DNA of 37,028 nt from a virus (IMGVR_UViG_2690316076_000004), one strand, 5' to 3'; positions 6,259-37,028 are shown, counted from the stretch's first letter. Notes: generated by a model from the letters alone, not told the origin. Translations and numbers: made by a program.

Positions 6259-6429
6259 TTAGCCCCCTAATAACGAAAAGACCCCCGCCAGTGTCCTTAG
6301 CAATTGTTCATCCACGGTCATAGCCGGGAGTTCAAGCCCAAAGGACGTAAGCAGAGGTCTAATTGCTACGTTATAAGTGAGGGCGACAATCAAGAGATAA
6401 CCAAAATATTTCTTAAGTTTATTCTTCAT
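6259..6429 (-). CDS. small membrane protein (possible lysis-associated)
   Basis: ATG at 6429 with GGGGTGA RBS preferred over track start 6501 (which overlaps upstream gene); one hydrophobic helix; no Cys, so not a lipoprotein o-spanin. Confidence 0.4.
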   Translation of the reverse strand: MKNKLKKYFGYLLIVALTYNVAIRPLLTSFGLELPAMTVDEQLLRTLAGVFSLLGG

Positions 6430-6448
6430 ATATTCACCCCTTTTATTA

Positions 6449-6727: not shown

Positions 6728-6770
6728 TACGCCCCCGATATTTTTATATAATTTAATGGCAGAATTATTT

Positions 6771-6814
6771 AGATAAAAATAATCCCGCCTAACTCAAAAG
6801 AATTAAGCGGGATT
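6771..6814 (-). terminator. intrinsic terminator downstream of J-like gene
   Basis: AATCCCGC ... GCGGGATT stem followed on minus strand by ATTTTTATCT. Confidence 0.55.
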
Positions 6815-6832
6815 AATTATTAGAATTAAATT

Positions 6833-17829: not shown

Positions 17830-20800
17830 TTAACCAAATAATTTTGCTTCAATAGCAGCAAGACGTTCACGAAGGATTTTATTTTCTTCGCTCATTTCTT
17901 GAATTGCTTTGATTAAAAGCGCGTTCACTGCGGAGTTTGAAATTGTTAAAATCTCTTCTGGGTTATCAAGACCACCAATTTTTGCGGTTTTAACAGCTTC
18001 CGGTAATACCTCTTGTAAATCCTGTGCGATAATACCAATCTCATGACCTATAACTTCTCGGTCATTAAGAGATTTAACTTTATCGTAGGTTTTAACTTTG
18101 AGTTTATTTACCTTATCTACCGCATTTTCTTCGTAGTCTTCAACATTAATTTTCAGACGACGGTCGGAACGAATATACACATCGTTAAAGTTACCATTAC
18201 CTGGAGAATAGAAAGTGCCATCATGATGGAACTCGTAGACAGCTTGAGGATGACCAGCAGCAGGTGAGTTTTCCGCAGATCCAACACGAATAATTGCTTG
18301 TCCCCAATTGTTGGGGACACGACGCATACCAAAATCGACGGCAGTTGTATACCCTTGATTGGTTATTAAACTTCTTCCTTTGATAATCGGATAATAACAG
18401 TCCTGTGAAACATAACCATGATCGACGAATATTGGAGCTTCTAATGACCATTGGTCATTCCATGCGCCAGATTGGCTAGCAGTCCAACGTTCACCGTGAA
18501 CATAGAATCGAACGTTATTGACATGAGTCATTTCGACGCCTTTCGGACTTAGCGCGATATCCCCCGCATTTGTAATGTTTATGGCAGCATTAGTAGCATA
18601 GCTATAGAACGCTAATCCATTATCAGCGCCACCTTTACCGATATACCAGTTGTTATTATCAGCACAAGTACCCAACAAATATATAGACGAATCTCCACTT
18701 TCGGCATTCATGATGATTGCGTCAGATCCACGATTAACTTTCAGTTTCCCGAAAAATGTGTTTTTAATGGTATTATCACCCAATCGTTCAAATTCTGCGA
18801 AAAATCCTTTTGAGTCACGAAGACTTAAAACGTTATTTCGACCTGTATTGCTTGCCCCCCAATGGACGAGTTCCATATAGTCCATAGATTGACGAGAACC
18901 AGCTTTAAACAAAAGGTTGTCTTCGAGACGAGTGCTACCATCAATCCCAAGATGTAAACACCGAGCGGTCGTTGTGCCCCCTAGATCCAATCCACCCTCA
19001 GCGAAATCATAACTAAATGGTCTACGATTATTCCAATTTCCAAAAGAATCTTTTAAATCGGTAGTCAGTATATGGAAACCAGTACCATCATTTCTAAAAA
19101 TTAAGCCATAATTGCCACCTTTAACAGCCAAACGCGCATTTTCAGATAATGCAACTTCGCTATTCATTACAATTTTCTGGCCTTTACCACCAGTAATATG
19201 TAATTCACCATCTTCAATCAGGTTTATCGAGTTTTGACCGTTATCGTTCCACCAAATAAAATCTTTGGTCTGACCATCACCGAAGCCAAACCAGCCATTA
19301 CGAACATCTGTACCAGTGCGATAATCAAAGAAGTTTAAATGACATGATTCATTTGGACCACGACGAAAATCAATTGCTGAGTTTCCACCTAAACCGCCAT
19401 CAATGGTCATTCTACGAATATGCAAACCGGATGCAGCCGACAGCAATAATTGTTGGTTTACATCATCGTATCCAGTAGCAAGACGATAATTCTGATCATC
19501 TACAGTTTCATGCCAGATAGTAGCGGGTGCGGAACTACGGAAGCGACGCAACTTTTTCTTAGCATTTGTTTGTTGTTCGTTCAAATGCTCAATGTCATAT
19601 TGGCCTTGATGGTTTCCACCAAAATTTAACGTTCCACGGTTGCTAAAGTTATTGAATGATGAAATGTTAAGAGCATCAAAAATTTCATCTGCAACAGGTT
19701 TTTCACCACCCAGATATTCAGGAGTATCCAACAGGTTTAAAGAAACACCACCGGACGAAACTTGATATTCTGCTAAAACAAATCCTGTATGTGCACCGTA
19801 GTAAGCGTAAAGATCGTAATTATCGCCATCGGTAGGAATTGCGCAAAAATATTGTTCGTAATACCAAATGCTATAATAAGCATTGAATACAACACCTTTC
19901 GGGCTATTGTTGCCGCAACGGATCACCAGTTCAATAACATTGGCTTGTCCATTCTGTCCGACGTTATAACCGTTACCACCAACCAAACGAATCTTAGCGG
20001 TGCGACCGTGTTGTTGTGGCATTGTCAAAGTGCCTAGTTTAAACCAACCGCCCTCGATACCAAAATTAAGCGTCTTCTGGAACAGTCGGTCAATTTCTGC
20101 TTTCGAATATGCGCCAATTTCGGCAGGAGTAGGTTTATCACCTTCATGATACATGCGGTGAGAATATGCCAAATGACCCAATTCATCATAGCCGTATGTT
20201 CTTACCGTAGCATGTGGATTAGACCCATAAGTGAACTCAAAACCACGAGCATGATTAACACCGGATGGATGTGGAACATGCAAGATCATAGCAATATGAT
20301 CAGCTAGATCATTGGTACGGAATGCACCAAAGTAATCAAGATTACGAGCACCTGGATCATCAAAATAGTTTGCGGTCTTAGACAGCAAATAACCATCAGT
20401 ATAAGTGTTTACGTGTTTTTTGATGTACTTACCGTCACTAGATCCATCGGCTGCATCAATACGGCTTTCTAAACGTGCAAGTTCGGAATCGGTGTAAGAC
20501 TTGTTATTGTCAACTTTGCTATGAATTGCTGAATTTTTGGCTTCAACATCACGGGTTAATGCTGCGACGTTATCCGCTGCCTCTTGCTTATTGGCTGCAA
20601 TCACACCAGTAAGGTTATTGTAGGTGTCAGTTAACTGATTTTCCGCATAGGCTTTATTTGCTGCGATAGTCCGATCAGTCTCGGCCTTAATCAAATCAAC
20701 CTTGTCATTGATTGCTTTGTCATTGCTTGCGATGGTTGCATCGGTACGGGATTTAATATCATCAACTTTTTTATTGATGCGGGTGTCCAGTTCCTGTGTT

Positions 20801-21243
20801 GCTACAGCAGCCGCATTTTTATTAGCGTTGATAGTATCCGACAATTCAGCTTTAACACCAGCAAGGTCGGAAGCAGCTTTATTTTTATTGGCATCGATTG
20901 TCGCGTCGGTTTCGCGTTTAATTACATCAACTTTATTGTTAATTTCTACGTGATTTGCTGCGATGGTTGCATCAGTAGTTTGTTTAATTTCATCTACTTT
21001 AGCGTGAATATTGCGGTCATTTACTGCAATTGTACTATCCAGTTCTTGTTTGTTAGCATCAACTTTAGATTCTAGTGCCGCGTGAGTTTCAGGAGAAACA
21101 GAGATTTGAACTACTTCATGATCTCGGTCTTTGGTAAAAATAACATGGTCTTTAAGGTTGATTGCTACCTCACCGACCTGTAATTGTTCCGGCGTTGGTT
21201 TTTTGCCAGAAACATTTGTTCGTTTAAATTGGATCGACTGCAT
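17830..21243 (-). CDS. side tail fibre with C-terminal intramolecular chaperone (peptidase S74-type) domain
   Basis: C-terminal ~112 aa (SDRRLKINVEDY...AIQEMSEENKILRERLAAIEAKL) matches S74 chaperone-domain pattern, encoded at about 17833-18168; fibre-like repeats in N-terminal third; GAGGTGA RBS. Confidence 0.85.
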   Translation of the reverse strand: MQSIQFKRTNVSGKKPTPEQLQVGEVAINLKDHVIFTKDRDHEVVQISVSPETHAALESKVDANKQELDSTIAVNDRNIHAKVDEIKQTTDATIAANHVEINNKVDVIKRETDATIDANKNKAASDLAGVKAELSDTINANKNAAAVATQELDTRINKKVDDIKSRTDATIASNDKAINDKVDLIKAETDRTIAANKAYAENQLTDTYNNLTGVIAANKQEAADNVAALTRDVEAKNSAIHSKVDNNKSYTDSELARLESRIDAADGSSDGKYIKKHVNTYTDGYLLSKTANYFDDPGARNLDYFGAFRTNDLADHIAMILHVPHPSGVNHARGFEFTYGSNPHATVRTYGYDELGHLAYSHRMYHEGDKPTPAEIGAYSKAEIDRLFQKTLNFGIEGGWFKLGTLTMPQQHGRTAKIRLVGGNGYNVGQNGQANVIELVIRCGNNSPKGVVFNAYYSIWYYEQYFCAIPTDGDNYDLYAYYGAHTGFVLAEYQVSSGGVSLNLLDTPEYLGGEKPVADEIFDALNISSFNNFSNRGTLNFGGNHQGQYDIEHLNEQQTNAKKKLRRFRSSAPATIWHETVDDQNYRLATGYDDVNQQLLLSAASGLHIRRMTIDGGLGGNSAIDFRRGPNESCHLNFFDYRTGTDVRNGWFGFGDGQTKDFIWWNDNGQNSINLIEDGELHITGGKGQKIVMNSEVALSENARLAVKGGNYGLIFRNDGTGFHILTTDLKDSFGNWNNRRPFSYDFAEGGLDLGGTTTARCLHLGIDGSTRLEDNLLFKAGSRQSMDYMELVHWGASNTGRNNVLSLRDSKGFFAEFERLGDNTIKNTFFGKLKVNRGSDAIIMNAESGDSSIYLLGTCADNNNWYIGKGGADNGLAFYSYATNAAINITNAGDIALSPKGVEMTHVNNVRFYVHGERWTASQSGAWNDQWSLEAPIFVDHGYVSQDCYYPIIKGRSLITNQGYTTAVDFGMRRVPNNWGQAIIRVGSAENSPAAGHPQAVYEFHHDGTFYSPGNGNFNDVYIRSDRRLKINVEDYEENAVDKVNKLKVKTYDKVKSLNDREVIGHEIGIIAQDLQEVLPEAVKTAKIGGLDNPEEILTISNSAVNALLIKAIQEMSEENKILRERLAAIEAKLFG

Positions 21244-21316: not shown

Positions 21317-22150
21317 TCAGTATTCCCCGAAGTCGATCCGGTCATGGATAGAAACGGCTTCAATCTCGGCTGGTGTCGGTTTTTCTTCTGTGGAATACAC
21401 TTTCACCCATCCAGAATTACCGTCTTTCTGGACTGTGCGAACTCGTAAACGTGGTGCGCCGGAAGCGGTGCAAGTTAATTGCCATCCACCATCTTCATTA
21501 GGTTGAACGTGAATTAGTGAAGTATCAGCACTAAATGGATTAGATACGCTCGATCCCTGATAAGTTACGAAACGGTTTCCGGCTAATGCTTCGCTATCAA
21601 TCGGACCTGTGAATGGATGTACACCAGCGCCCAAACCAAAATCACCTTGACGTAAGATCCGGCCTTCGGTGGCAATACCACGGTCGAGAATCCCACCATC
21701 AGGATCTAATTTAAATTCGATGGTAGTAACTTTGTTATCGCTACCACGGGTTTTGTGTGATGTGACGTATGCATCAAAAATGACGTAGTATCCTGTGTTA
21801 GCAGCACTATAGCCAGAGTTCACAACATAGAACATACGGAAGCGTAAAGGGGTTTTATCCTCTACCGCTTTCATCAACATTGCTTGATGTTCATCATCCA
21901 GAACACGGTTTACTGTGAGTGTTGTTGATTCAAGTTTACGATAGCCAGCCAACTTACCAGTAACATCATGGTTATATTCTTCTAACGTCTGGATCTCTGT
22001 GGATTCGGTGATCGTAGGGAATGCTGCGATGTTCTCGATAGGACTAAATGCAGGATCGAAAAAGTCCGGCTGGTTATCCACCATAGTAGACACGGAGACT
22101 TCAACATGCGACCCCGTGAAAATGTCTAAGTTATCTTGTGTAATATTCAT
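21317..22150 (-). CDS. hypothetical virion protein (possible fibre-associated/collar protein)
   Basis: 277 aa; shares KPTPAEI motif with the fibre; located between U-like and fibre genes; function not recognisable. Confidence 0.45.
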   Translation of the reverse strand: MNITQDNLDIFTGSHVEVSVSTMVDNQPDFFDPAFSPIENIAAFPTITESTEIQTLEEYNHDVTGKLAGYRKLESTTLTVNRVLDDEHQAMLMKAVEDKTPLRFRMFYVVNSGYSAANTGYYVIFDAYVTSHKTRGSDNKVTTIEFKLDPDGGILDRGIATEGRILRQGDFGLGAGVHPFTGPIDSEALAGNRFVTYQGSSVSNPFSADTSLIHVQPNEDGGWQLTCTASGAPRLRVRTVQKDGNSGWVKVYSTEEKPTPAEIEAVSIHDRIDFGEY

Positions 22151-25096: not shown

Positions 25097-26611
25097 TTAT
25101 TGGGGATCGGTTTGAGAAGGGTTATCCTTGCTCTCACCATCAACGATAATATTTAGTGCGCTCTTTTCGGCTTGAATCTCTGAGAATACTTTTTCAGGAT
25201 CATCACCACGTTCTAATATAACGGCAGTACGTGATTTAAGTCCTTTATCAATTAAAGCAATCTCGGCGTTTACGTCTTTAATAGGATCGACGGATTCAAA
25301 ACGCGGACGAATAATAGTAGTGTTGTCGATAATATGCGGAATTGCAGTAATACGAATCGGAACAATACCACGCGCGGAATAATGGCGTAGATATGCTTCG
25401 AAAATTGGCAATACCACGGTTTCAATCAATTTGTTTTGCAGTGCTTTAACACGGTTACGCTGAGTTAATTCACCAAAACGCGCGGCTGAGTAGTTAATCT
25501 GGGAAGTGTCACCAGTCAAGCCCTGTTTAAACACGCCAAGACCCATCGCTATATGGGTGAACATGCCATCGTTGAAGCTGATAAAGTCATCACCGTTTTG
25601 CGTCGCCTGAATACTCTTGATCGTTGCCCCTTCCGGCAATTCCTGAATAGTACCAGGTGCAAAATCCTGTACTACTTCCGGCGCTTGATATTGTTCATCC
25701 TCTTCACCAGTATCAAAATCGTCACCAGAATCTTTCGGACGTTCAATAAAGCCCATAGAGCTAGCTGCAATACGTTTCTGGATGATCGCGGTTTCGCGGA
25801 ACGCTTCTTGATGAGCAATATCCTTAATCACTGGCAGGAAGTCAGTCACACCACGTAAACTTTCCGCGCACAGTGGCTGGTAGTAGTGGCACACCTGAGA
25901 AGCATCTACGCGATAATTTTCGCCAGTGTAGGTCTGAGTCAGTAGATTGATTTTTCTAAACCAGTATGCTACAGGGCGCATTGTTTCTACGTCATACTCA
26001 ATCCCTTGAAAGATCGCGCGGTCTTTGCTTATTTCACGACTAAGCGACCAGTCGCACCTATCAGCAGACAGAATAGAAACTTGTAACTCGTTGTTTTCTT
26101 TGGTTAAAACGATGAAGCATTCTCCACCCTGAACACGTTCAGATTCTGCCATTGCCAGCATTTCACGGAAGTTAAAGCGACCGTTGCGAGAGAAGCGTTT
26201 AGCACTCTGCGCCCACTTCCAGAAAGCATTCTCGATCTGCTTATTCAGTGCGGTGTCAAGTTTGCCATTTGATTTAACGATTGATGGTTTCGGATCAAGC
26301 CCCGTACCAACAACTTGGTCAACGATATACTGCTTGTATCGCTTGCCTACAGCATTGTTTATAGCCAGAGTACGACCCTGATCATAAAGGCGCTTACCGT
26401 TCGATTTGAGAGCCTTATTGAACGTTCCGGTGATAGTATCTTGTTGAAGCTGTCCATCAATTCGATCACCGACTAAGCCCAAAGAACGCTTAGACAAATC
26501 TTTCTGGAATTTTTCTACTTGTTTGTCGATAAAGATTTTTTGTTGTTGCTGGCGGTGATTAGTTTTAACTGGAGTTTCTACCGCCTTTTTGCGTCGAAAA
26601 AGATTAAACAT
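25097..26611 (-). CDS. portal protein, lambda gpB-like
   Basis: IAMGLGV...YSAARF segment resembles remembered gpB (IAAGLGVSYEQL...YSTAR); 504 aa; between W-like and capsid genes. Confidence 0.85.
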   Translation of the reverse strand: MFNLFRRKKAVETPVKTNHRQQQQKIFIDKQVEKFQKDLSKRSLGLVGDRIDGQLQQDTITGTFNKALKSNGKRLYDQGRTLAINNAVGKRYKQYIVDQVVGTGLDPKPSIVKSNGKLDTALNKQIENAFWKWAQSAKRFSRNGRFNFREMLAMAESERVQGGECFIVLTKENNELQVSILSADRCDWSLSREISKDRAIFQGIEYDVETMRPVAYWFRKINLLTQTYTGENYRVDASQVCHYYQPLCAESLRGVTDFLPVIKDIAHQEAFRETAIIQKRIAASSMGFIERPKDSGDDFDTGEEDEQYQAPEVVQDFAPGTIQELPEGATIKSIQATQNGDDFISFNDGMFTHIAMGLGVFKQGLTGDTSQINYSAARFGELTQRNRVKALQNKLIETVVLPIFEAYLRHYSARGIVPIRITAIPHIIDNTTIIRPRFESVDPIKDVNAEIALIDKGLKSRTAVILERGDDPEKVFSEIQAEKSALNIIVDGESKDNPSQTDPQ

Positions 26612-26621: not shown

Positions 26622-27119
26622 TTATCGCGTAAGACGTAATTTGATATTTTTAATCGGGCTAATTCCCTGTTTACGTCGTTCGGCTTGAATTAATTTTGAT
26701 AACTGACGTTCATAATCAGTCTTTAATTGCTGGAGAACACCTAATGACTCATAGGCGAAAGTATTCCCTTTCACTGTCATTTGAGATAATGCGGCTTCGT
26801 CCCCAGATAAACGGGCGAAAATAACTTGCTCGATTAAGGTGATAGTTTCCCGCAGATATTCTTTTTTGGATTGTTTGGCGAATACTGGTAAAACAGTTAA
26901 TTCCTGCATTGATATCAGTTCTTCTTCCAAAGTTATTACGATGGTATATTTACCTTCGGCAAAATCTAAGGTTTTAATCTCATGATTAGCCGGAGAATCA
27001 TCAACCTGATAGATGATACCTTTATTATTATTTCCTACCTGAATTGTTACACCCTCTTCATTCGCCAGCGTGACTTTTTCGCCTTTACGAATTACTAAGG
27101 GAATTAGTTCTAAACTCAT
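26622..27119 (-). CDS. head-tail joining protein (W-like) with N-terminal extension (tentative)
   Basis: position between terL and portal as for lambda W; no firm motif. Confidence 0.35.
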   Translation of the reverse strand: MSLELIPLVIRKGEKVTLANEEGVTIQVGNNNKGIIYQVDDSPANHEIKTLDFAEGKYTIVITLEEELISMQELTVLPVFAKQSKKEYLRETITLIEQVIFARLSGDEAALSQMTVKGNTFAYESLGVLQQLKTDYERQLSKLIQAERRKQGISPIKNIKLRLTR

Positions 27120-27191
27120 AATTACCCCTTATTTAATTGTTATTGGATTAACAATATTTAGGAGTAAGCCGCCCCGAAGGACGGCGAGTTA

Positions 27192-29099
27192 TTAGAACGA
27201 TGTTACCCAGCTACGGCCTCTATTTGGGCGTCTGGCGATGTTTTGACGTTGCGGTCGTGTGATTGGCTTAGTTTCTTCTATTTGCTCGTCAGATTGCGAT
27301 TTAGGAGCTTCTACGGATTCTTCGACAACACGGTTTAAGCTGTCTTTCATTGCAATGAGTTTATCCCATGACATTTTTGAAAGAACGTAGCGAGAAGCAG
27401 CATAGCTATAAACCAGACAGTCGAGAGCCTCGTTTCGGGTACTACCTGGATTTTTCACCCAACGCACGCCAGTAGTAGTACGCTTGATGGATTCACTCAA
27501 AAGCTGATCGAGATAATCATCAGGAACGGTTTCTGATATTTCTAAGCCAATATGAGGATTATCTTTCAGGTTTCTAACCAGCATTTCACGAACAGCGGAT
27601 TTCCCAACGTTAACACCCAGCATAAGCAATTCATGACCACCTGTACGGGTAGGTTTAACCGGAATCACTGGAGCATTACCAGATGAACTACCTTTGATAG
27701 CGTGTAGGTTCTTCCACTTGCCGCAAATACGGTATCCGGCTTGAGTGAATCGACCGTTCGATGTATCAAGGAAACTGGCGAGCATTGGTACACGTTCACC
27801 ATTAACGTTATAGAATTTGGTTTTCTTGAAGTTAACCAGACGATCCCAAACAGGTGATTCATATCGTTCACAGTTATGATCGTAAAAGCTGCGGTGATCC
27901 AGAATGTAAACCTTATCTTTCGCTACACCTAAGATGGTAGATTCTGCGCGGTCCAATTGCTGGTCAATTCCTGAGCACAAGAAAATCACGTCATCAGGGA
28001 TATTCTCGATAGAAACATCTGTTTTGAGTTGTTCCAGTTCATTTGCTTCTACTGCCGTGTCCTGATCGTCGTATACCTTGCCTAACACGGTGTTATAAAA
28101 TGATTGTAAATCAAAGGATTGCCACGCATGGCTAAAATCAACAACACAAGCGCGGATCGTGCTGAAAGGTGAATACAGACGGCTAATCCAGAATCCAGCT
28201 ACTTCACTTTCTCTCGTTACTCGCCATTCACCAGCAGCCACCGCCCTGATCCGCTCTCCTTCTGTCCATGCGTTCTTACAGTGGGGGCAAATATAACGAG
28301 CGGTATCAGGATCGGGTAAGTTCTTACCATCGATGTTACGCCATTCAAATTGAACGTTTTCCCACTCGATCACCTGGTGTTCCCCGCAATGAGGACACGG
28401 AACAAAAAACATACGCATATCGCTTGATAACCATTGCTGGTTAATGCTTCCGAGCTTACTGGTCGGGGTGCTGGATACGACTAATCGACCTTCATCGCCA
28501 AAGGTAGTTAAACGGTTAGCAGCCAGTGCCACCGGATCACCTTCTTCTGAGGCTGTAGCAGCATCGATTTCGTCAAGTAATCCAACCTTTGCGGTCTTAC
28601 CGCGTAGGGTTGATGGACTGGTAAGCGATACCATGTAAAGGAAGTGATTCGTTTTTAGCTGTAGCTGGTTATTGTTGTTAACCGCATTGCGATCATTCTT
28701 GTCTGTAACAACGTCTTTTAATGCATCACATGCTTCGATAGACGGTCGGATCTTACCAGCGAGATATTGAGACATTTCTTTAGCGGTTGATTGTCCGATA
28801 ATCATATTGCATGGATCGTTAGCCATCTGGTTAAACAGGATACCGTTCAGGATGGTAGTCTTTCCGATCTGTGCACTGGTCATCAGGACATACTTTTTCT
28901 TGTTCTCAAGGAAAGGTGCATCAATCATGCCTTTTTGGAATGACAACAATTTAACTTTATCCCCAGCTTGAGGACCATCTACCAGCACCATATTCGCTTC
29001 GCACCATTCAGACGGAAGGAGTTTAGGCGGTGGAGTGATATATTTTGCGGCATTTTTAAGAATCTTTTTTAATTTGGCCTTGTTCGAAATCAGTTTCAT
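27192..29099 (-). CDS. terminase large subunit, lambda gpA-like
   Basis: [26 protein letters not shown] (Walker A-like), [21 protein letters not shown] all mirror remembered gpA motifs; ATG at 29099 with GAGGG RBS preferred over track start 29174. Confidence 0.93.
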
Positions 29100-29142
29100 G
29101 TAATTACCCTCATTACGAAATATGAAGGTATTTATTAAATTG

Positions 29143-29170
29143 TTGATATTTTGATAAATACGGGTATTAA
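29143..29170 (+). promoter_or_regulatory. candidate sigma70-type promoter in divergent terL/HTH-gene intergenic region
   Basis: TTGATA (29143-29148), 16-nt spacer, TATTAA (29165-29170), about 15 nt upstream of the 29185 ATG. Confidence 0.35.
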
Positions 29171-29184
29171 TCAAAGGGGGTTGT

Positions 29185-29787
29185 ATGCTAATTAATCAGC
29201 AAGAAAGAGATGAATTAGAATTAGCCTTGTCTTGTACCGATCATGAATATCGTTTGCCAGTTAAGCACCATCACAAGAAGACTGATTACACAACATCCGG
29301 CTTTAGTCGCGAGGAAGCGAAGCAAATTTTAATAGAGTTGTATCGCGATCAGGGATATACAGATATTCACAACTTCTTTAAGAAGCACCGAACATCACAG
29401 ACAGAGTTCCAGAGAGTCCGTGAATGGTTTGATTTTGATATCAAGCGTTATTATCGAGTGGATGACGGTCCGATCTATCGGTTGCAGTGGACACCGATCA
29501 GGGAAGTGTTGAAACAGAAGAGACTAAATCACGCTATTACACGCTATCGTAACGTGGCTTTTAAGAAAGGATATGGTGATACAAGGGAACTATTCGTTGA
29601 ACTCGCTAACGTGCGATATAGCCATTATTACAGGAATCCTAAAGAGTTCTTCGAAGTGCTGCGCAAGGTTGATATAAGTCGGGGTACATACTATTCACGG
29701 TTGAAGAAGTACGGGATTAAGGCAGAGTTCTTTATGAGTATTGACGATGGAGAACTTTTTCCGATAAAATGTAAGTCCTCTAAATAA
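29185..29787 (+). CDS. HTH DNA-binding protein (C-terminal resolvase-type helix-turn-helix)
   Basis: C-terminal [15 protein letters not shown] resembles Hin/resolvase-type HTH; AAGGGGG RBS. Confidence 0.5.
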
Positions 29788-29815
29788 AGGTGAACATTCA
29801 CTTTAATTTGGAGAA

Positions 29816-30046
29816 ATGACTATGACTACTAAAGCTACTCGCGGTCGTCCTTGCCGTTTTGATCGTGAACAACTGGCAGCGATTGTAAAAGCGTACTATC
29901 AAGCACCGAAAGGTAAAGCCGAAAAAGAGCAAGTATTGAGTGAACACGGTATTTCAATCGCTCAATTCTACAAATCACTCCATAAAGTTGATTTGAAATT
30001 CTTTGTTCAGGTTGACGGTGAAATGGTAGAAGCAACAGGAATTTGA
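29816..30046 (+). CDS. small HTH protein, paralog of 33578-33757
   Basis: RGRPCRFDREQL ... GISIAQFYKSL parallels MARPVKFTREMI ... GIDRSGFYKLM in the 33578 gene; GGAG RBS. Confidence 0.5.
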   Translation: MTMTTKATRGRPCRFDREQLAAIVKAYYQAPKGKAEKEQVLSEHGISIAQFYKSLHKVDLKFFVQVDGEMVEATGI

Positions 30047-30053
30047 TTCTCTA

Positions 30054-30082
30054 GGCCAATCCTTCGGGGTTGGCCTTTTTTA
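30054..30082 (+). terminator. intrinsic terminator
   Basis: GGCCAATCC-TTCG-GGGTTGGCC stem followed by TTTTTTA. Confidence 0.8.
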
Positions 30083-30086
30083 TATC

Positions 30087-30314
30087 CGCTCAAAACTGAG
30101 CACATCTCTAAGTCATTGATTCTTCCGATGAGTCCAGATTTGGACTGATCTATAGATGCCCTCAAAACTGAGGAGATGTGCTTAAAGTTCAGCGTATCTA
30201 TCTAAGTGGTTGATTCTTTCGAGAAATTCAAACTTGAATCAATCGGCGCAAAACTGCGCTCATCTCTAACCTATTGATTCTTCCGATAAATCCAAATCTG
30301 GATGCATCAGATAC
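30087..30314. repeat. three-unit degenerate repeat (~70-85 bp each) with IHF-consensus motifs and short palindromes
   Basis: units start CAAAACTG(A/C)G; each contains ATTGATTCTT whose complement fits WATCAANNNNTTR, followed by GTCCAGATTTGGAC / ATTCAAACTTGAAT / ATCCAAATCTGGAT near-palindromes. Confidence 0.7.
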
Positions 30315-30344
30315 AAAAAAGCCCAGCGCAATTATGCGCTGGGC
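30314..30344 (-). terminator. intrinsic terminator after Rha-like gene
   Basis: perfect 10-bp stem GCCCAGCGCA-ATTA-TGCGCTGGGC followed on minus strand by TTTTTTGT. Confidence 0.85.
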
Positions 30345-30350
30345 GATTAA

Positions 30351-31184
30351 TCAGATCCCAAAATCAACAAGGGAAATTACGTTACCTGATTCACGAATCT
30401 GTTTAGCAGCTTTGTTTTGAATCAGAATAGTGTTATTTGGCTGCGGCAGTTTAAGAGTTGCTTTCTGTTCTTCTTCCAAAACGCCCAATTCAACCAGCAC
30501 CGGAAGAACATCAACAGTAAACTCAAGCTGGTAATGAGCATTCATGCGGCAGAAAGACAGAGAAGAGTCATTAGCAACATACCCACACGGCTTGTTATTT
30601 TCATCATAGACGCGCTCAATGTAGCCAGCAGTACGTAAGGCCGTCAGTGCTTGTTTAACCTTCGTAGCGCCCTTTTTAGCGCCTAACAGACGTGTCATAG
30701 AATGGCTATCTACGGATTTGCGAATGTGTAGCTCAATCAGTTTTTTATTTTTGCGTTTTTCATCTAATGCCAGTTCGATCCAGTCGGTTTCTTCAAAGTC
30801 CGCATACGGGTTAACAGGAGTATTATTGGCGGTTTTCAGTTTCTCTTCCAGATAATTCCAACGGTCAACCAGTTGGCGAGTAAATTCCGGTACGTTTTGA
30901 GCAATCAAGACAATCGAATCTAAGCGACCTTGCTCACCCTCAAACACATAATCTTTAACAGTAACAGCAAACCCTAAGTTATTGATTTTCTCGAAATTCT
31001 GCGTTGCAGGTTTTCGGATAACTTGGCGTTCAACCAGTCGGTTCATAGAAGTTTCAAGGTTTGAAAAACGAACTCCAATAAGGTCGGCAATTTCACGAAG
31101 AGTCATTTTTGCAACTTCGTTATCAACAACCAGAGACACGGAAGCAGTTTTAACAGCAGTATTCATAGTAGTAACAGTATTCAT
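30351..31184 (-). CDS. Rha/ORF6N-type phage regulatory protein (antirepressor-like)
   Basis: N-terminal MTLREIADLIGVRFSNLETSMNRL resembles Rha/ORF6N DNA-binding pattern; family call from memory. Confidence 0.5.
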   Translation of the reverse strand: MNTVTTMNTAVKTASVSLVVDNEVAKMTLREIADLIGVRFSNLETSMNRLVERQVIRKPATQNFEKINNLGFAVTVKDYVFEGEQGRLDSIVLIAQNVPEFTRQLVDRWNYLEEKLKTANNTPVNPYADFEETDWIELALDEKRKNKKLIELHIRKSVDSHSMTRLLGAKKGATKVKQALTALRTAGYIERVYDENNKPCGYVANDSSLSFCRMNAHYQLEFTVDVLPVLVELGVLEEEQKATLKLPQPNNTILIQNKAAKQIRESGNVISLVDFGI

Positions 31185-31273
31185 AGTAAAAATTCCCCTT
31201 AAACGGTTTAATGATTTGGTCCTCCTAGTTCCGGCATCACCACCGGAACAATTTTATTTATAATAGAAATTTA

Positions 31274-31606
31274 TTACCAATCGATTTCTACTTGGTCTTC
31301 TTCATAATAAGGAATCGCATATTCATAACGCCAGTTTTCGATGATTTCACGTTCTTCATTAGTAAGAAGGTGATTGCTAACTGGAGTTGCATTGTGATTA
31401 CCAGCTTCGAATTGCTCGCGAACTTCCAGCATTGCATGAATACCAGTTAAGGACATCAGATCAAACGGAACATGCATACTACGGGAGATAGTTTCACGGG
31501 ATACACCCCAATCATTTTCTACATGGCTAGGGGTTACAGAAACGGTTTTGCCGGAGATTTTAACAGTCCAGTCATACAGGGATTTAGTGATGGTAAATTC
31601 TTTCAT
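31274..31606 (-). CDS. hypothetical protein
   Basis: 110-aa ORF with AAGAGGA RBS; preceded by a strong promoter-like element. Confidence 0.55.
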   Translation of the reverse strand: MKEFTITKSLYDWTVKISGKTVSVTPSHVENDWGVSRETISRSMHVPFDLMSLTGIHAMLEVREQFEAGNHNATPVSNHLLTNEEREIIENWRYEYAIPYYEEDQVEIDW

Positions 31607-31662
31607 GTTACATCCTCTTTACAAATCTAGGTCAAATAGGTTCAAAGTTGTCAAGTGCGATA

Positions 31663-31704
31663 ATCATAAAAAAGTCATAAAATTTTGTCAATACCCCTTG
31701 ACAA
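31663..31704 (-). promoter_or_regulatory. sigma70-type promoter with overlapping palindromic operator
   Basis: minus strand TTGACA (31686-31691), 17-nt spacer, TATGAT (31663-31668); inverted repeat TTGTCAA-N6-TTGACAA (31685-31704) overlaps the -35. Confidence 0.5.
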
Positions 31705-31726
31705 GACGCCAAAGGGTTGACCTAAC

Positions 31727-32185
31727 TTACAGCATATCTAAGCCTTCATCGTAACCGTAGAAGCCATTCTGAGAAGAGAAACAGATTGGAGCGTAGTCTT
31801 CGTCTTCCTCATCTTCTTCATCTTGTTCTGGGGCTTCCTGAGCGGGTTGTTTACCGTAATCAGCCATAATCTGGTCAAGATCGGCGATCCCATAGTAAGA
31901 GCCTAAATCAACATCGTATTCACGAACATCAAACGGCAGGTCATCACGAACAATAATTGCTGGTAGATTCTGGTATTGTTCACGATCTTCATCAGTGAAG
32001 CAGTCAACTACCACCGTAGGACGACCATTGCGTTTAAGAGCATAGAAAGCAGTTGAATAGTTGGAGTCTTCGGAATGACGAATGATGTTATAACCACGAT
32101 TAGCGAAAACTTCTAGCATATGGAAGTTGCCGTAGTTTTCAGAGTCCAGACCCAGAAGTACGAAAGGAGTTTTAGTATTGATCAT
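31727..32185 (-). CDS. acidic protein (C-terminal Asp/Glu run)
   Basis: 152-aa ORF with AGAGGA RBS; C-terminus EAPEQDEEDEEDEDY. Confidence 0.55.
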   Translation of the reverse strand: MINTKTPFVLLGLDSENYGNFHMLEVFANRGYNIIRHSEDSNYSTAFYALKRNGRPTVVVDCFTDEDREQYQNLPAIIVRDDLPFDVREYDVDLGSYYGIADLDQIMADYGKQPAQEAPEQDEEDEEDEDYAPICFSSQNGFYGYDEGLDML

Positions 32186-32766
32186 AGTGGTATCCTCTAA
32201 AAAGAAAGTGAATCAATCTAATATTATTTATAAAGAGAAAATTCTTGTTATTATGAAAGGTGATTGGATTCAGTCGGCTTCGCCTCCTTCATGATTTTTG
32301 ATTAAATCATCGTCAAAACGAAGAAGTATCTTTAGAATATAAGAATCTTTCTTTTGGAGAAATAATAATCAGGAAGCAATTTAGCAACCGAAGGTTGCAA
32401 TCCCGAAGGGATACCAATACCTTTCATGATCATTAAAGTGATTATTACTATCTTTCTAGAATCAGTTAGTAACTAGTTTAAAATCCCTTTCGAGAAAATC
32501 CTTTCAGAAGTGATTCTCGATGCCACGCAGTGGCGTCGCAGACGTTTGAGAGTGAGCGAAGCGAGCGAGCAAACTAGTTAATTCCTTCTAAGACCATCTA
32601 GTATCATCTAGTTTAAATTAGTTGTTACTAGAAGCAATTGGTTGGCGCTTCGCGCAGTCGGGCTAAAGCCCTCCTAATATCTTTCTGGTTATTTGTTGTT
32701 TTTAGTTTTACACATGAGCGTAGCGAATGTGTTATATAATATCTATGCACGCCGAATCCCTGCTTT

Positions 32767-33010
32767 TGCCCCTCGCTAAGTTAATGTTTTATAAAGAGTT
32801 TTTCTCACCAATTCCTTTCAGGGGCAAATTTCAGGGGCAAAAATTAGATTTTCAGGGGCAATTATTGGCATTTCAGGGGCAAAAATGAGGGGCAAAATCA
32901 CCGTTTCCCAGAATTTCAGGGGCAAAAATATAGGGTTTCAGGGGCAAAAATGGGATGTGGAATCTAGGGGATTTTGGTTCAGGGGCAAAAATTCAGAATT
33001 TCAGGGGCAA
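32767..33010. repeat. iteron-like array of TTCAGGGGCAA
   Basis: exact 11-mers at 32817, 32830, 32851, 32872, 32915, 32937, 32978, 33000, variants at 32886 and ~32963, one inverted core at 32767-32775; spacing mostly 21-22 bp or multiples. Confidence 0.85.
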
Positions 33011-33100
33011 TTCCCATCAAATATTTTGATAGAAAATTCCTGTATATTATTTAATCAAAAAATCACCAAAAAGCGGCGTAAGTTAATGATTTAAAAAGAA

Positions 33101-33126
33101 TTGTCAAAAGGTCTCCGTGCTATAAT
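33101..33126 (+). promoter_or_regulatory. possible extended -10 promoter
   Basis: TTGTCA then TGC-TATAAT (TGnTATAAT) at 33118-33126; -35 spacing suboptimal (14 nt). Confidence 0.3.
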
Positions 33127-33206
33127 AGGTTATAAAGGTTGATAATCCTGCTCTACCATTTTCAAACAAAAATTTTGATAGTCATTTCTCGCTTAGGTCA
33201 AGTGTA

Positions 33207-33235
33207 TTGACAACTGTCAAGGATTATTTTATACT
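33207..33235 (+). promoter_or_regulatory. strong sigma70-type promoter
   Basis: TTGACA (33207-33212), 17-nt spacer, TATACT (33230-33235); overlaps TTGACAA/TGTCAA near-palindrome. Confidence 0.5.
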
Positions 33236-33371
33236 TTTTCTCACTGGTGGGGGTTGAAATTTTCTAAACAGTCCCCATATAGATGATAAGCAAGAATTTC
33301 CACGTTATAAATACATGTGTGAAATGATTGTTCACTTCTGAAAATCTCCTGATTCACTGCTAATTCATACA

Positions 33372-33400
33372 GCACTGGTTAGATATACAGTGCTTTTTCG
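33372..33400 (+). terminator. hairpin + T-tract (leader terminator/attenuator 1)
   Basis: AGCACTG-GTTAGATATA-CAGTGCT followed by TTTT. Confidence 0.4.
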
Positions 33401-33457
33401 GTTGAATATTGTACGAATTGATTAATAATTAATCTTCTCTTTAGCAATTCGTGCTCC

Positions 33458-33484
33458 CACTGATCGGATATACAGTGGTTTTAC
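33458..33484 (+). terminator. hairpin + T-tract (leader terminator/attenuator 2)
   Basis: CCACTG-ATCGGATATA-CAGTGG followed by TTTTA; same CACTG..GATATA..CAGTG architecture as 33372. Confidence 0.4.
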
Positions 33485-33523
33485 AGGGTTTTCTGAAAAT
33501 CATTTTATAAATACAAGTGTTCA

Positions 33524-33544
33524 GAGCGAAATGCTCTTTTTTAA
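33524..33544 (+). terminator. hairpin + T-tract directly upstream of small HTH gene
   Basis: AGAGC-GAAAT-GCTCT followed by TTTTTT, about 20 nt before the RBS of the 33578 gene. Confidence 0.45.
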
Positions 33545-33577
33545 GAAATTATTAATCCACATGTGAGGAATCGACTG

Positions 33578-33757
33578 ATGGCTAGACCTGTTAAGTTCAC
33601 TCGTGAAATGATTGTTGATATTGCTAAACGCTTTTACAGCGACACTGAGCGAGGCGGGGAAAACTTCTTTAAGAAGGAAGGAATTGATAGAAGCGGATTC
33701 TACAAGCTAATGAAGAAATACGAAATTCAGGTAAAGATTAACGTTCAAGTTTGTTAA
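33578..33757 (+). CDS. small HTH protein, paralog of 29816-30046
   Basis: ATG at 33578 with TGAGGAA RBS (track start 33563 is GTG); sequence parallels the 76-aa protein. Confidence 0.5.
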   Translation: MARPVKFTREMIVDIAKRFYSDTERGGENFFKKEGIDRSGFYKLMKKYEIQVKINVQVC

Positions 33758-33871
33758 TCCACTTTCACTGAGAATTATATGATGGCTTTAAAAAAGAAAA
33801 AGCCTCCTTTGCTGCAACAAGGGAGGCTTGAAATGAACAATTAAAACTAACTTTCCACAGGAGTATTTATA

Positions 33872-34834
33872 ATGTTATTTTCCGCTAACTTTTTCACTAA
33901 CGAAGTAACCAACGCTAAAGCAGTTATCAAATTTGGCACCGAAGCAAACAAGAAGATTCAGCCGAAAGTTGTTGCTCATGTTTCCTTTGCGCAGCAGAAA
34001 TCCGCTTTCGCTGGCTTTAAAGCACATCGTGAAGCACTGATCGCGGCTGGCTTTGGTGTTGACGGTAAACTGCCTAACGGCATTCGTAAAGCAATCGACC
34101 GCGTTAAACCTGCTAAAGACGTTGCAGTAGACCACATCGTTACTTTCACCGTTAAGAACTCTTCTGAACTGTTCCACCTAGTGATTGCTGGTGATACTGC
34201 TATCGTTTCCGCTCCTAACATGGATTTTCAGGATACCGCTGATTGCAACATTACCTTTGGTCGTCGTAAAGAAGTTACCGGAAAAGCTAAACTGAACTTC
34301 ACCAAATCCGGCAATCCTTACTTTGCTGTATTCTTTAACAGCCACGCTACTGAGAAAGAAGTAGTAGAACTGGTTGCATATGAAGGTGAAGAAAAAGCAC
34401 GTATTGAATCTTGCGACGCTTTCGTAGAACTGGAAGCACAGGTTAATGCTGTTTCTCCGGTTGCTGTTGAAGATCGTTTCTCTGCACTGGAAGCACAGAT
34501 CGCAGAACTGAAAGCTGCACTGAAAGAAAAAGACCAGATCATCGAAGCACAGAAAGCTGAGATTGAAGAACTGAAAGCTAAAGAAGTTGCTCCGGTTGCT
34601 GTTGAAGCAGATCGGGAAGTTGAATCTAAAGACTTCTTTACTCAAGCGGTTGAATCTAAAGACAAACAAGCTCTTTGGATTCTGCTTAACGAAAAGCGTA
34701 CTGTTGCAGACGTTGCAGAATGGAACAAATACCTGATTAAGAAAAATGGTTCTTCCGTTCAATTCATCGATTTAATGACAGTTAAAGTTTTTGATGCGTT
34801 CGAAAATGTGTTCGACGTTCGCAAAGCAGCTTAA
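33872..34834 (+). CDS. hypothetical protein with host-like high-expression codon usage and central coiled-coil
   Basis: 320-aa ORF with AGGAG RBS; codons dominated by CTG, CGT, GGT, AAC, GAC, ACC unlike the AT-rich structural genes; coiled-coil EAQIAELKAALKEKDQIIEAQKAEIEELKAK. Confidence 0.65.
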   Translation: MLFSANFFTNEVTNAKAVIKFGTEANKKIQPKVVAHVSFAQQKSAFAGFKAHREALIAAGFGVDGKLPNGIRKAIDRVKPAKDVAVDHIVTFTVKNSSELFHLVIAGDTAIVSAPNMDFQDTADCNITFGRRKEVTGKAKLNFTKSGNPYFAVFFNSHATEKEVVELVAYEGEEKARIESCDAFVELEAQVNAVSPVAVEDRFSALEAQIAELKAALKEKDQIIEAQKAEIEELKAKEVAPVAVEADREVESKDFFTQAVESKDKQALWILLNEKRTVADVAEWNKYLIKKNGSSVQFIDLMTVKVFDAFENVFDVRKAA

Positions 34835-34860
34835 TTTTTAATTTAATTGGAGACCCTACT

Positions 34861-35202
34861 ATGGCAACTTTAAACGAAAAAGCACTGTCCCGTAAAACTC
34901 TGAAAGAGAAAAACATGATTCTTTCTGAAACGCTAAAACAGACTAATGCTGAGTGTGAATTTTTGACCATTAAACTTTCGATTAAAGAGAAAGAATGCAA
35001 TGAGCTAATGGAAAAGTACAAATCCTTACATGATAATTACGTGAAACTTGGTGAAGGATTTAAAGCCATGCAAGAAGACTACAAGAAATCATTGAGGGAA
35101 CAGATTAAACTACTTGAAGAATTGAAAGGGTATAGAGAAAAGTCCGTTAAAGAAAAGAAAATACAGAAGATGAAAAACAAAGGATTGCGTCTTGTTGCTT
35201 AA
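34861..35202 (+). CDS. coiled-coil protein
   Basis: 113-aa Lys/Glu-rich ORF with GGAG RBS. Confidence 0.55.
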   Translation: MATLNEKALSRKTLKEKNMILSETLKQTNAECEFLTIKLSIKEKECNELMEKYKSLHDNYVKLGEGFKAMQEDYKKSLREQIKLLEELKGYREKSVKEKKIQKMKNKGLRLVA

Positions 35203-35204
35203 GA

Positions 35205-35232
35205 CAATAAAAAAGGGACTCCGAAGAGTCCC
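35205..35232. terminator. intrinsic terminator (strong on minus strand)
   Basis: GGGACTC-CGAA-GAGTCCC; minus-strand downstream TTTTTTATTG. Confidence 0.65.
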
Positions 35233-35304
35233 TAGTAAGTTTAGGTTAGGTTTGCACAACAAAGATGAGGTTATAATGAACATAATGCTACATTATTCTT
35301 TAAA

Positions 35305-35335
35305 GCCAGAAAAATAACCGCCCCGAAGGGGCGGG
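35305..35335 (-). terminator. intrinsic terminator of leftward terS transcript
   Basis: CCGCCCC-GAAG-GGGCGG; minus-strand downstream TTATTTTTCTGG. Confidence 0.6.
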
Positions 35336-35492
35336 AGGATTAACACTCAATCTATACTTGTTATGTTTTTATGTTGTATAGATCACTGACTATGAAAACA
35401 CTGTACTGGAGTGTGTTTTATGGCTTTTAATCGGGAATCCTCAAAGAAGATCCCCTGTTAATAACCATAAGGAGAAAAGGCAGATTACACTA

Positions 35493-35777
35493 TTATTTAG
35501 TCTGTTTGAAAACAAACGTTAAAAATTCGATTAAGCAATATACCCAGAGTACGGTCATCATCAAATGCATAGCAATAGTTGGATGGAAGTTAAAAAGTGT
35601 CATACTAACTAGGCCAACAATATAAGAAATTCCTTCGACAATTAACGCAAGGCTAGCAAATGCAACAAACGCACCTAAGAATAATTCGCCTCGTTCTTTC
35701 GGTTCGGTTCCGAGTTTATAAGCAGAGATAGCAGCCAGAATAGTAATGATGACAGCATAGGTAATAAAAGTAGCCAT
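35493..35777 (-). CDS. small 3-TMD membrane protein (possible holin)
   Basis: 94 aa, three hydrophobic helices; AAGAGGA RBS; no firm family assignment. Confidence 0.5.
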   Translation of the reverse strand: MATFITYAVIITILAAISAYKLGTEPKERGELFLGAFVAFASLALIVEGISYIVGLVSMTLFNFHPTIAMHLMMTVLWVYCLIEFLTFVFKQTK

Positions 35778-35871
35778 AGTTTTATATCCTCTTAAAAGTT
35801 AAGCGGGGGATGTTCTCCCCCGTAGGCGTTGACCCGTTCAACACCCTTCATACATTTATTTATAACGCGTT

Positions 35872-36426
35872 TTAAGACACATCAAATTCATCGTCTTCAT
35901 CTGGTTCTTGTTCCGGTTCATCGATTAATGGTAATTCTTCTTCCTCGTCTTCTCCCAAATCCGCATTTTCGAACAAGTCCCCTACTTCATTTAAACGACG
36001 CTCGATGATCTCCCTTAGCTTATTCTTCAATGTTTTCTGGTCGGTGGCAGATTCTAAAATTTCTAAAGCATCGATTGTGGCGATCTGCAAAATAGTCTGT
36101 TTCACTTTCCCGCAATATTCCGCTAGTTCCTGTTCTACATAACCGACCGGAATCAGGAGGTTCATTGCTTCCTGGTTCTCTCGTTCGGCTGCATCTGCCA
36201 ATGCTCTCTCACGGCGTAATTTCTCTACGTCGATTTGTTCTTTGATGGAAGTGTTTTTTAACGGGTTAATGATGTTCTTTAGCACCCAATCGCAACCTTC
36301 TTTGGCTGGAACACGTCGTGTGTTGGTGTTAAATGGCAATCCCCTTTCTATCCATCGCTTACCGCCACCATTCAATGAATAGCCGTATAAACGGGAAATT
36401 TCTGTAAGGGTTAATTCTTCTTTCAT
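35872..36426 (-). CDS. terminase small subunit, lambda Nu1-like
   Basis: N-terminal LTLTEISRLYGYSLNGGGKRWIERGLPF and EKLRRERALADA resemble remembered Nu1 (QLADIFGASIRTIQNW...RGGGKG... ENEKLRRE); acidic C-terminus; GGAGGA RBS. Confidence 0.75.
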   Translation of the reverse strand: MKEELTLTEISRLYGYSLNGGGKRWIERGLPFNTNTRRVPAKEGCDWVLKNIINPLKNTSIKEQIDVEKLRRERALADAAERENQEAMNLLIPVGYVEQELAEYCGKVKQTILQIATIDALEILESATDQKTLKNKLREIIERRLNEVGDLFENADLGEDEEEELPLIDEPEQEPDEDDEFDVS

Positions 36427-36546
36427 TGGTTATCCTCCATTAAATTTGCGTAATTTTATTTATTGGTTTTACGCACAATCTAAGCGCCTAAATCGCATTC
36501 TAACGAAGGGAAAGATCCAGTAATGGTAAGGGCTAGGAAGTGGGTT

Positions 36547-36573
36547 AATAGTCGCGTAGCGACCGCGCTAGGA
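36547..36573. other. candidate cos-type cleavage region (GC-rich, partly symmetric)
   Basis: AATAGTCGCGTAGCGACCGCGCTAGGA is a GC-rich island with internal GTCGC..GCGAC symmetry, ~120 bp upstream of the Nu1-like gene start; GCGACC echoes the lambda cohesive end. Confidence 0.25.
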
Positions 36574-36722
36574 CTGCACTGATCACGTTTTAAAATCTCA
36601 CACGCGTATCAAATACCGGGGTGCCGAAAACTCCCTTTATTTCACCCGTGGAACAGTACCTTTTGATTTTGTCAAGTCTTTTTTATAAATAATCGAAAAT
36701 ATTTTTCACACGAGGGCAAATC

Positions 36723-37028
36723 ATGAAGACTAAAGATATTAAGATTGAATTTGAAACTGTTGATGACGTTCGGGAACATCGCATTGATTCTACTGGCTGC
36801 ATCTTCCAGCTTACTAACTCCCCTATTGGATTGATTATCTATGTAGCAGAAGATGACGTGTACGCTATATGGGATGGACAGGATGAGTTTAAAGGCGGGA
36901 ATAGCCATCTGATCAATACTCATGAGGGATTTGATCCGACTCCTGTCTGTATGCTTGCTTATCACGTAACACTGGATGAACTACCGGAAGCAAGCGCGCG
37001 TATCCGTAGAATGAAAGACATTAAGTGA
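36723..37028 (+). CDS. hypothetical protein
   Basis: 101-aa ORF with GAGGG RBS, preceded by TATAAATA-containing promoter-like region; stop at last bases of window. Confidence 0.55.
   Translation: MKTKDIKIEFETVDDVREHRIDSTGCIFQLTNSPIGLIIYVAEDDVYAIWDGQDEFKGGNSHLINTHEGFDPTPVCMLAYHVTLDELPEASARIRRMKDIK

Follow-up and report, generated by a model that had tools for sequence, protein, structure and literature searches.

We analysed the 37,028-nucleotide stretch IMGVR_UViG_2690316076_000004, called the window below, which is an integrated temperate siphovirus-type prophage of Escherichia coli with low GC content (41%). The subject is its terminase, whose small-subunit gene (terS) and large-subunit gene (terL) lie on a common strand (minus) at a distance of 6,772 bp. 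An earlier sequence-only reading had described a Nu1-like terS and a gpA-like terL, on the same strand and 6.8 kb apart; the spacing is as it said, and both assignments hold on PHROG and Pfam matches and on hhalign alignment to Nu1. The positions of all features are collected in Table 1.

The separated terminase genes and their relatives

Assignment of terL rests on two domains, the N-terminal GpA_ATPase (PF05876; E 1.6e-56, 192 bits against a cut-off of 25.6) and the C-terminal GpA endonuclease (GpA_nuclease, PF20454; E 2.6e-44, 152 bits against a cut-off of 22.5). The protein also matches phrog_15 at 2.4e-135, and its RefSeq relatives are named "terminase gpA endonuclease subunit". On these matches, terL is unambiguously assigned as a gpA-type large terminase. 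For the small subunit, residues 23-166 match phrog_57 ("terminase small subunit") at 5.7e-11. A profile of 18 TerS homologs aligns in hhalign with a hand-entered sequence of lambda Nu1 at 95% probability and E 3e-8, over 87 columns that span the winged helix-turn-helix (wHTH) and the helix that follows it. The same profile gives weak matches in the PDB to three TerS DNA-binding domains (6hn7, 1j9i and 7lw0; E 0.14-0.9). The AlphaFold model (pLDDT, the predicted local distance difference test, 71.5) presents a strand-helix-helix-strand wHTH, a helix of ~50 residues (41-89), a helical domain and a disordered acidic tail, and an acidic C-terminal tail is found in all TerS homologs. A tblastn search of TerS against phage records returned nothing at 1e-3. 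In nearly all named database entries seen, the 184-residue protein is labelled "hypothetical", because it is encoded 6.8 kb from terL.

The arrangement is not peculiar to the window. All 23 IMG/VR relatives found with TerS have the common order, with a spacing of 6.4-8 kb: terS, (o94), (o113), o320 or an analog, o64, a noncoding gap, o152, (o110), o277, o76, o200 and terL, where brackets mark genes that are not always present. Matches to the region occur in 64 of 5,426 complete E. coli genomes, all of them chromosomal; owing to the mosaic make-up of the block, 80% or more of the region is covered in only two. Two E. coli chromosomes were looked at in detail and keep the order and spacing; among the complete E. 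coli genomes, annotated gene order was inspected in L3Cip3. Relatives in Salmonella (TerS 52-57% identical) and in Proteus columbae (TerS 50-55%) have the same layout, including the ~1.4-kb noncoding gap, and over all relatives compared (IMG/VR, E. coli, Salmonella and Proteus) the spacing is 5.6-8 kb. Megablast of 27000-37028 against 50,697 phage records gave no match, so that by sequence the phage appears to have no characterised close relative, and a search of the literature on this prophage group (hicB/serine recombinase) found nothing relevant.

Integration does not account for the separation. The two ends of the window coincide with attL and attR, because related prophages in complete E. 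coli genomes are flanked by the halves of a disrupted host gene. In strain L3Cip3, hicB is disrupted into two halves, one flanking each prophage end, and truncated hicB directly follows o101; in CFSAN061761, a truncated ycdX adjoins the prophage end that carries the integrase allele of the window. The attP site lies between o101 and the first gene of the window. Integration was rejected as the cause of the split: attL and attR are outside both terminase genes, which are therefore 6.8 kb apart in the circular form too. The serine-integrase alleles and their target genes differ among the related prophages, and the terS-side end (o101) is constant.

A single long late block on the minus strand (3416-29099) encodes endolysin, tail fibre, tape measure, major tail protein, fused protease-capsid, lambda-family portal and TerL. 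When the window proteins were scanned, everything outside 29185-37028 and the integrase end proved to be structural, lysis or homing-endonuclease genes. Because the remaining genome encodes only these functions and integration, the block between terL and terS is the phage's only early region. The sequence-only reading had called it regulatory or replicative, and this is borne out by its contents: a candidate iteron origin and initiator, a Rha-family regulator, and paralogs with helix-turn-helix-like (HTH-like) domains. We consider it likely that the window encodes a lambda-type two-subunit terminase whose terS and terL sit in separate transcription units, with the phage's own early region between them, in an order derived from a contiguous pair.

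Table 1. Position, strand and description of the features of the window.
Feature	Position	Strand	Description
Large serine recombinase (integrase)	1648-3342		Resolvase, Recombinase and Zn_ribbon_recom domains
Lambda-family portal	25097-26611		PF05136, 2.4e-65; downstream of terL
terL	27192-29099	minus	gpA-type large terminase, 636 amino acids from ATG at 29099; opens the late (head-tail-lysis) block
terL-o200 divergent intergenic region	29100-29184		85 bp; terL promoter presumed
o200	29185-29787	plus	200 amino acids, two tandem o64-like HTH-like domains of ~50 residues; core, always divergent from terL
o76	29816-30046	plus	Small HTH-like paralog, core
Repeat array	30081-30311		Three units of ~75-85 bp between convergent terminator-like hairpins (30053-30076 plus; 30344-30321 minus)
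o277	30351-31184	minus	Rha/Ant-family regulator; phrog_63 2.3e-15, phrog_4936 2.1e-9; below Pfam threshold
o110	31274-31606	minus	Small protein, in some relatives only
o152	31727-32185	minus	Acidic C-terminus; core
Noncoding gap	32186-33562		~1.4 kb; Salmonella and Proteus relatives have an equally long gap in this place
Iteron array	32764-33010	plus	8 exact TTCAGGGGCAA, one copy with 2 mismatches at 32885, inverted GAGGGGCAAAA at 32764-32774
AT-rich stretch	33011-33110		75% AT, adjoins the last iteron; candidate DNA-unwinding element
Sigma-70-like site	33207-33235	plus	TTGACA-17-TATACT, 11/12, best in the block; points into o64-o320-o113; consensus match only
o64	33563-33757	plus	Single-domain HTH-like paralog upstream of o320
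o320	33872-34834	plus	Candidate iteron-binding initiator; N-terminal specificity domain of ~190 residues, coiled coil, C-terminal domain
o113	34861-35202	plus	Coiled-coil protein, variable; in 1/23 relatives
o94	35493-35777	minus	Small hydrophobic protein of 94 amino acids, downstream of terS; variable slot
terS	35872-36426	minus	Nu1-like small terminase, 184 amino acids
Noncoding element 5' of terS	36557-36686	minus	~130 bp; AAAGGTWCT - N21-23 - GWGTTTYCGR ... GTGTGA..TTTT
o101	36723-37028	plus	Last prophage gene, divergent from terS; attR just beyond

The iteron array and the candidate initiator o320

The noncoding gap of the early region contains the iteron array that the sequence-only reading had noticed. 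Eight exact copies of TTCAGGGGCAA occur within 32817-33010, where 0.57 are expected and none of 100 shuffles reaches eight, and their spacing is mostly 21-22 bp. Within the 1.4-kb gap, AT content peaks in an 80-bp window (77.5% AT) whose start is at 33019-33023, 9 bp after the last iteron. Outside the iterons, the gap is partly conserved (70-75% by blastn), with Salmonella over 33068-33541 and with Proteus over 32430-32535. Short GC hairpins are seen at 32380-32410, 32520-32545 and 32640-32680; these and the conserved stretches may be regulatory RNA or promoter/operator sequences.

The iteron sequence and the neighbouring gene o320 switch together. Among E. coli-type loci, 24 were compared. 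An o320 homolog of at least 90% identity is present in 12, each of which carries TTGCCCCTGAA-type iterons, and the 12 without one have other repeats, mostly AAACCTACACTA; for this partition (12/0 and 0/12) Fisher p = 7e-7, a value that overstates independence, as it compares adjacent DNA in related genomes. L003, the one locus without o320 that was examined, encodes at the same position a 333-residue protein of the same layout with an unrelated N-terminus. Salmonella and Proteus have a third N-terminal domain in common, together with ATCCCTAGC iterons (9 and 13 copies, respectively). The alleles of o64 (the gene between the iterons and o320), of terS and of terL do not track the iteron type. 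Because its allele co-switches with the iteron sequence, o320 is a candidate iteron-binding protein. Its role as an initiator is a candidate one also, drawn from the anatomy of the locus and not from homology. A possible role of the iterons as binding sites of TerS (cosB) was rejected, as the iteron type switches while TerS stays 86-99% identical.

Origins with direct repeats, an AT-rich segment and an adjacent initiator are well known from lambda (O/ori) and P1 (RepA/oriR). The window resembles these and pSC101-type replicons in its 8-10 direct repeats at about two helical turns, in the adjacent AT-rich stretch and in a neighbouring gene whose N-terminal domain changes with the iteron sequence. 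It differs from lambda in that its iterons are intergenic, whereas those of lambda lie inside the initiator gene, and from the O and RepA replicons in that o320 has no detectable homology to either protein, a P-like loader is missing and DnaA boxes are not enriched.

Several of these observations tell against a replicon. Searches of o320 against Pfam, PHROG, NCBIfam and PDB found no known initiator or replication family, and Pfam on its N-terminal clusters and positional analogs returned coiled-coil noise only. An exhaustive HMMER search with the N-terminal domain recovered three full-length clusters among 1.84 billion representatives, and the AlphaFold model, made from a shallow alignment, is unusable (pLDDT 37.6). 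No helicase, primase or loader gene was found in the phage, so that replication would rely wholly on host factors. One could instead see in the iterons and o320 an operator array with its repressor, or a centromere-like/incompatibility site with its binding protein, the origin being elsewhere or replication proceeding by another mechanism. The dissimilarity of o320 to known initiators, the absence of DnaA-box enrichment and of a loader gene, and the long coiled coil of o320, which resembles that of some segregation and regulatory proteins, would all fit. We nevertheless think this rather unlikely, as direct repeats of 21-22 bp that abut the AT-richest segment, next to a specificity domain that co-switches with them, are the standard layout of an iteron origin, and neither a ParA-like ATPase nor any other origin candidate was found in the window.

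Origin of the split and identity of the small subunit

An outgroup was sought by a scan of one genome per species, and a single more distant relative was found, Citrobacter sp. 18056. Its TerL homolog is 37% identical (E 4e-126) and is followed by the same order of small gene, portal and protease-capsid; the gene for its TerS homolog (36% identity, E 1e-19) and the start of the gene for the TerL homolog overlap. With terS and terL still overlapping in this relative, the contiguous arrangement is the ancestral one and the split a derived one. The overlap also lends independent support to the TerS assignment. Upstream of the Citrobacter terS (L032, 473-10543) are genes for a 615-residue serine recombinase, a 650-residue P-loop helicase-like protein and several small lipoprotein-like products, none of them related to the early block of the window.

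Does the block then represent an insertion? The sequence-only reading had proposed a regulatory, replication or host-takeover accessory cassette inserted into a contiguous packaging operon, and had named comparison with related phages as the check. The ancestral contiguity seen in Citrobacter agrees with such an event, and so does the mosaic state of the block, in which o320 and the iterons are swapped, o277 varies from 38 to 100% identity, o94, o110 and o113 come and go, and the repeats number 0-3. The comparison, however, returned relatives with the same order and spacing and a module made of core genes, an outcome that the sequence-only reading had itself named as refuting it. Because the order is kept down to ~50% TerS identity and across three genera, the block is a fixed core and no recent insertion. 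The split is old and fixed, dating from before the lineages in E. coli, Salmonella and Proteus separated. The composition of the block is that of the phage: its genes have GC 0.34-0.43 and GC at third codon positions (GC3) 0.29-0.44, values that do not differ from those elsewhere in the prophage, and the gene with host-like codon usage that had been reported is not there. A PADLOC scan of ten block proteins matched no defence family, nor was any takeover family matched. Moreover, the window has no other replication or regulatory region, which makes the block an essential core. Finally, block insertion and terS relocation are indistinguishable on a circular map, where an early region moved in and a terS moved out are the same event. 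Taken as an accessory insertion, the block thus has little to recommend it, and we regard that explanation as improbable.

The assignment of TerS has its own adverse points. The protein has no match in Pfam or NCBIfam at E <= 0.1, being below the threshold of Pfam Phage_Nu1, and Foldseek of its model against the PDB finds MerR-like wHTH proteins only (BmrR, RacA and BldC, with non-significant E). The DNA-binding domain of Nu1 is itself MerR-like, so that matches of this type are expected for a Nu1-type TerS; for the predicted fold they are consistent with a Nu1-type domain and do not discriminate. These same absences and matches, the position of the gene ~0.7 kb from attR and far from terL, and the fact that o200 and o76 are the best conserved genes of the block and always flank terL, could suggest that the 184-residue protein is a MerR/Xis-like wHTH regulator or a directionality factor of the serine integrase, with DNA recognition for TerL coming from elsewhere (e.g. 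o200/o76); we hold this to be very improbable, as the phrog_57 match extends well past the HTH, the alignment to Nu1 runs through the post-HTH helix, the Citrobacter homolog overlaps the start codon region of terL in the manner typical of coupled terminase genes, all homologs carry the acidic C-tail opposite a conserved basic TerL N-terminus, and MerR-like folds are what the Nu1 domain would give.

Directly 5' of terS lies a noncoding element, the only noncoding sequence that we found conserved out to Citrobacter. Against the Citrobacter locus (L032, 9843-9950), it has a 14-nucleotide exact match, GAGTTTTCGGCACC, and AAAAGGTACT at a conserved spacing of 21-22 nucleotides. It can be aligned across E. 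coli, Salmonella, Proteus and Citrobacter despite TerS identities of only 36-57%, and accompanies terS in the contiguous and the split architectures alike. In the alignment of 24 upstream regions, cross-genus conservation is overstated, as 20 E. coli rows dominate the 80% threshold; blastn of the region across genera gives no long match, and the short bipartite motif is what remains. By nhmmer, the element is present in a single copy in the window (E 4e-37; next best 0.53). A second copy near terL, as a shared late promoter would have, was looked for with nhmmer and rejected, none being found. From its sequence and position, the element could be a cos/packaging site or, equally, the promoter/operator of terS (the late-operon promoter in Citrobacter).

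Expression, assembly and comparison with known systems

Under the preferred reading of a split lambda-type terminase, terS and o94 would make up a small unit, read leftward and located beside attP, with terminator-like hairpins at its borders (35822-35804 and 35334-35318). terL would be the first gene of the late operon, with a start within 29100-29184 that is probably activator-dependent. Between them, the early region would comprise the core HTH-like genes o200 and o76, divergent from terL, a Rha-family unit (o152-o110-o277) and an iteron-type replicon made of the iterons, the AT-rich stretch, the promoter-like site, o64 and o320, with o320 binding the iterons as initiator. TerS and TerL would be made separately and assemble in trans, and the acidic TerS tail may contact the conserved basic N-terminus of TerL in a Nu1-gpA-like manner. 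We infer this contact because all TerS homologs end in an acidic tail and the TerL alleles keep their lysine-rich first 16 residues.

Two results sit poorly with this organisation. The sequence-only reading had terL transcribed from its own promoter in the divergent region. It was right that terL needs its own transcription start, or else read-through, because no same-strand gene lies upstream; a promoter in that place was not borne out, as no sigma-70-like match of at least 9/12 was found within 29100-29184. In addition, cos was not located.

The separation is accompanied by free reassortment of the two genes. Among otherwise near-identical E. coli prophages (L004, L016, L021 and others), two alleles are found, ~58% identical overall; no difference is seen in residues 1-16, identity is otherwise 46-63%, and over the C-terminal ~100 residues it is 71-83%. 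Near-identical TerS is paired with either allele (e.g. L016 vs L017). The second E. coli allele resembles the Salmonella TerL, a mosaic swap of the motor gene with terS unchanged.

In lambda, Nu1 and A are neighbours transcribed together from pR', with cosN-cosB just upstream of Nu1. The terminase of the window is alike in that TerL has both gpA Pfam domains, TerS has a wHTH, a helix and a C-terminal partner-binding region, and a unique conserved noncoding element stands directly 5' of terS, where lambda has cosN-cosB. It differs by the 6.8 kb that separates terS from terL, in which early genes, transcription units of opposing direction and terminator-like sites are found. The enzyme itself is of the ordinary lambda type; its gene order is the one unusual feature.

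Separated terminase genes have counterparts. The P2 terminase genes M and P are in divergent operons. According to a published review, the terminase genes are adjacent in nearly every tailed phage; it names as exceptions Yersinia phage PY100, in which ORF2 and ORF18 are widely separated on opposite strands, and PaP3, in which one gene lies between them (PMC3488191). With P2, PY100 and PaP3 the window shares non-adjacent terminase genes that must come from different units, with assembly in trans. In contrast to these phages, one strand carries both of its genes, the entire early/replication region, origin candidate included, lies between them, and the derived state is polarised by a contiguous relative. 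Separated genes are already documented, and nothing here alters the accepted view of terminase function. The practical consequence concerns annotation: terS is sought immediately upstream of terL, and here, at 6.8 kb, it is missed as "hypothetical" in a fairly common prophage group of the Enterobacterales. The lineage also offers a naturally occurring example of a DNA-recognition subunit, together with a candidate cos, that is genetically unlinked from the motor subunit and reassorts with it; this could serve in work on TerS-TerL compatibility. Its block adds an uncharacterised initiator/iteron system whose specificities are swapped cleanly. The initiator/iteron modules and the terS-proximal element are by-products of more interest than the split itself.

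A bolder proposal goes beyond the preferred reading, and we offer it as speculation that is unlikely to hold in full. The cos-like element and terS would constitute a self-contained packaging-recognition unit, uncoupled from terL beside attP, which would permit free reassortment of TerS/cos with TerL and possibly a different schedule for TerS; o320 and its analogs would be an undescribed, modular family of coiled-coil iteron-binding initiators that recruit the host machinery without a phage loader. The pairing of near-identical TerS with TerL alleles of only 58% identity is an observation in keeping with the first part.

The other genes of the block are mostly small. The sequence-only reading had counted three small HTH paralogs. 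Kinship is seen by BLASTP between o200 and o64 (E 1e-6 over residues 133-186 and 0.005 over residues 40-87), which gives o200 two o64-like domains, and by tblastn between o64 and the other alleles at the o76 position, at 35-38% identity. No family was found for o200 in Pfam, PHROG or NCBIfam. Conservation within the block is highest for these genes, with o200 at 86-100% identity in E. coli relatives and 69-73% in Proteus and Salmonella, and o76 at 96% in Salmonella and 62% in Proteus; a role of the two in late-operon control is plausible. The product of o277, already recognised as Rha-like, matches phrog_63 among the Rha/Ant regulators; its relatives are annotated in RefSeq as "Rha family transcriptional regulator", and the Salmonella homolog carries PF09669, for which the window copy is below threshold. 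The small protein o110 has no match in Pfam, PHROG or NCBIfam. Homologs of o152 in Salmonella and Proteus are 40-41% identical and include positional equivalents of 151 residues; its C-terminus and the tail of TerS are the acidic proteins that had been mentioned. o94 is present in ~10 of the 23 relatives, and L003 (1721-2118) has other small hydrophobic open reading frames (ORFs) there. The slot looks like a moron-type variable position, perhaps with a role in superinfection exclusion.

The repeats with an integration host factor (IHF) motif that had been noted between o76 and o277 resolve into three units of ~80 bp, each with a hairpin NNNCA-AAAC-TGNNN, an IHF-consensus-like core TAAGTNNTTGATTCTT and a second hairpin. 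In the first hairpin, the loop AAAC is kept and the stems are compensatory (GCTCA/TGAGC, CCTCA/TGAGG and GCGCA/TGCGC), and the array folds better than shuffles on both strands (z -4.7 and -3.9). Among relatives, its copy number is 3, 1 or 0; the array is dispensable, and it was rejected as cos because of this variation. It may represent a structured small RNA, a set of protein-binding sites or a miniature repeat element. A search of Rfam with 28500-37028 found nothing significant (GcvB at E 0.19, below the gathering score). As to the several promoters and terminators attributed to the block, an excess is seen for terminator-like sites (12 vs 6.2 +/- 2.7 in shuffles) and not for promoter-like sites, which are not enriched (15 vs 19.8 +/- 4.9).

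Within the late block, a homing-endonuclease-like gene (phrog_314, 8e-32) occurs on the minus strand at 11045-11815, among the tail genes. A 1,137-residue ORF (17830-21243, minus) lies between the head-tail connector region and the major-tail-like genes, two of which (16360-16830 and 21317-22150) flank it. The best TerL match among phage records, 43% identical to that of the window, is in PQ671644.1 (Escherichia phage DCP80), the portal of which is 38% identical. This 141-kb record is classed as a T4-like Gaprivervirus, and its positions 1-8000 start with a gpA-type terL and a lambda-family portal; such genes are odd for a T4-like phage, and the record may be a chimeric assembly with a prophage of the general type described here.

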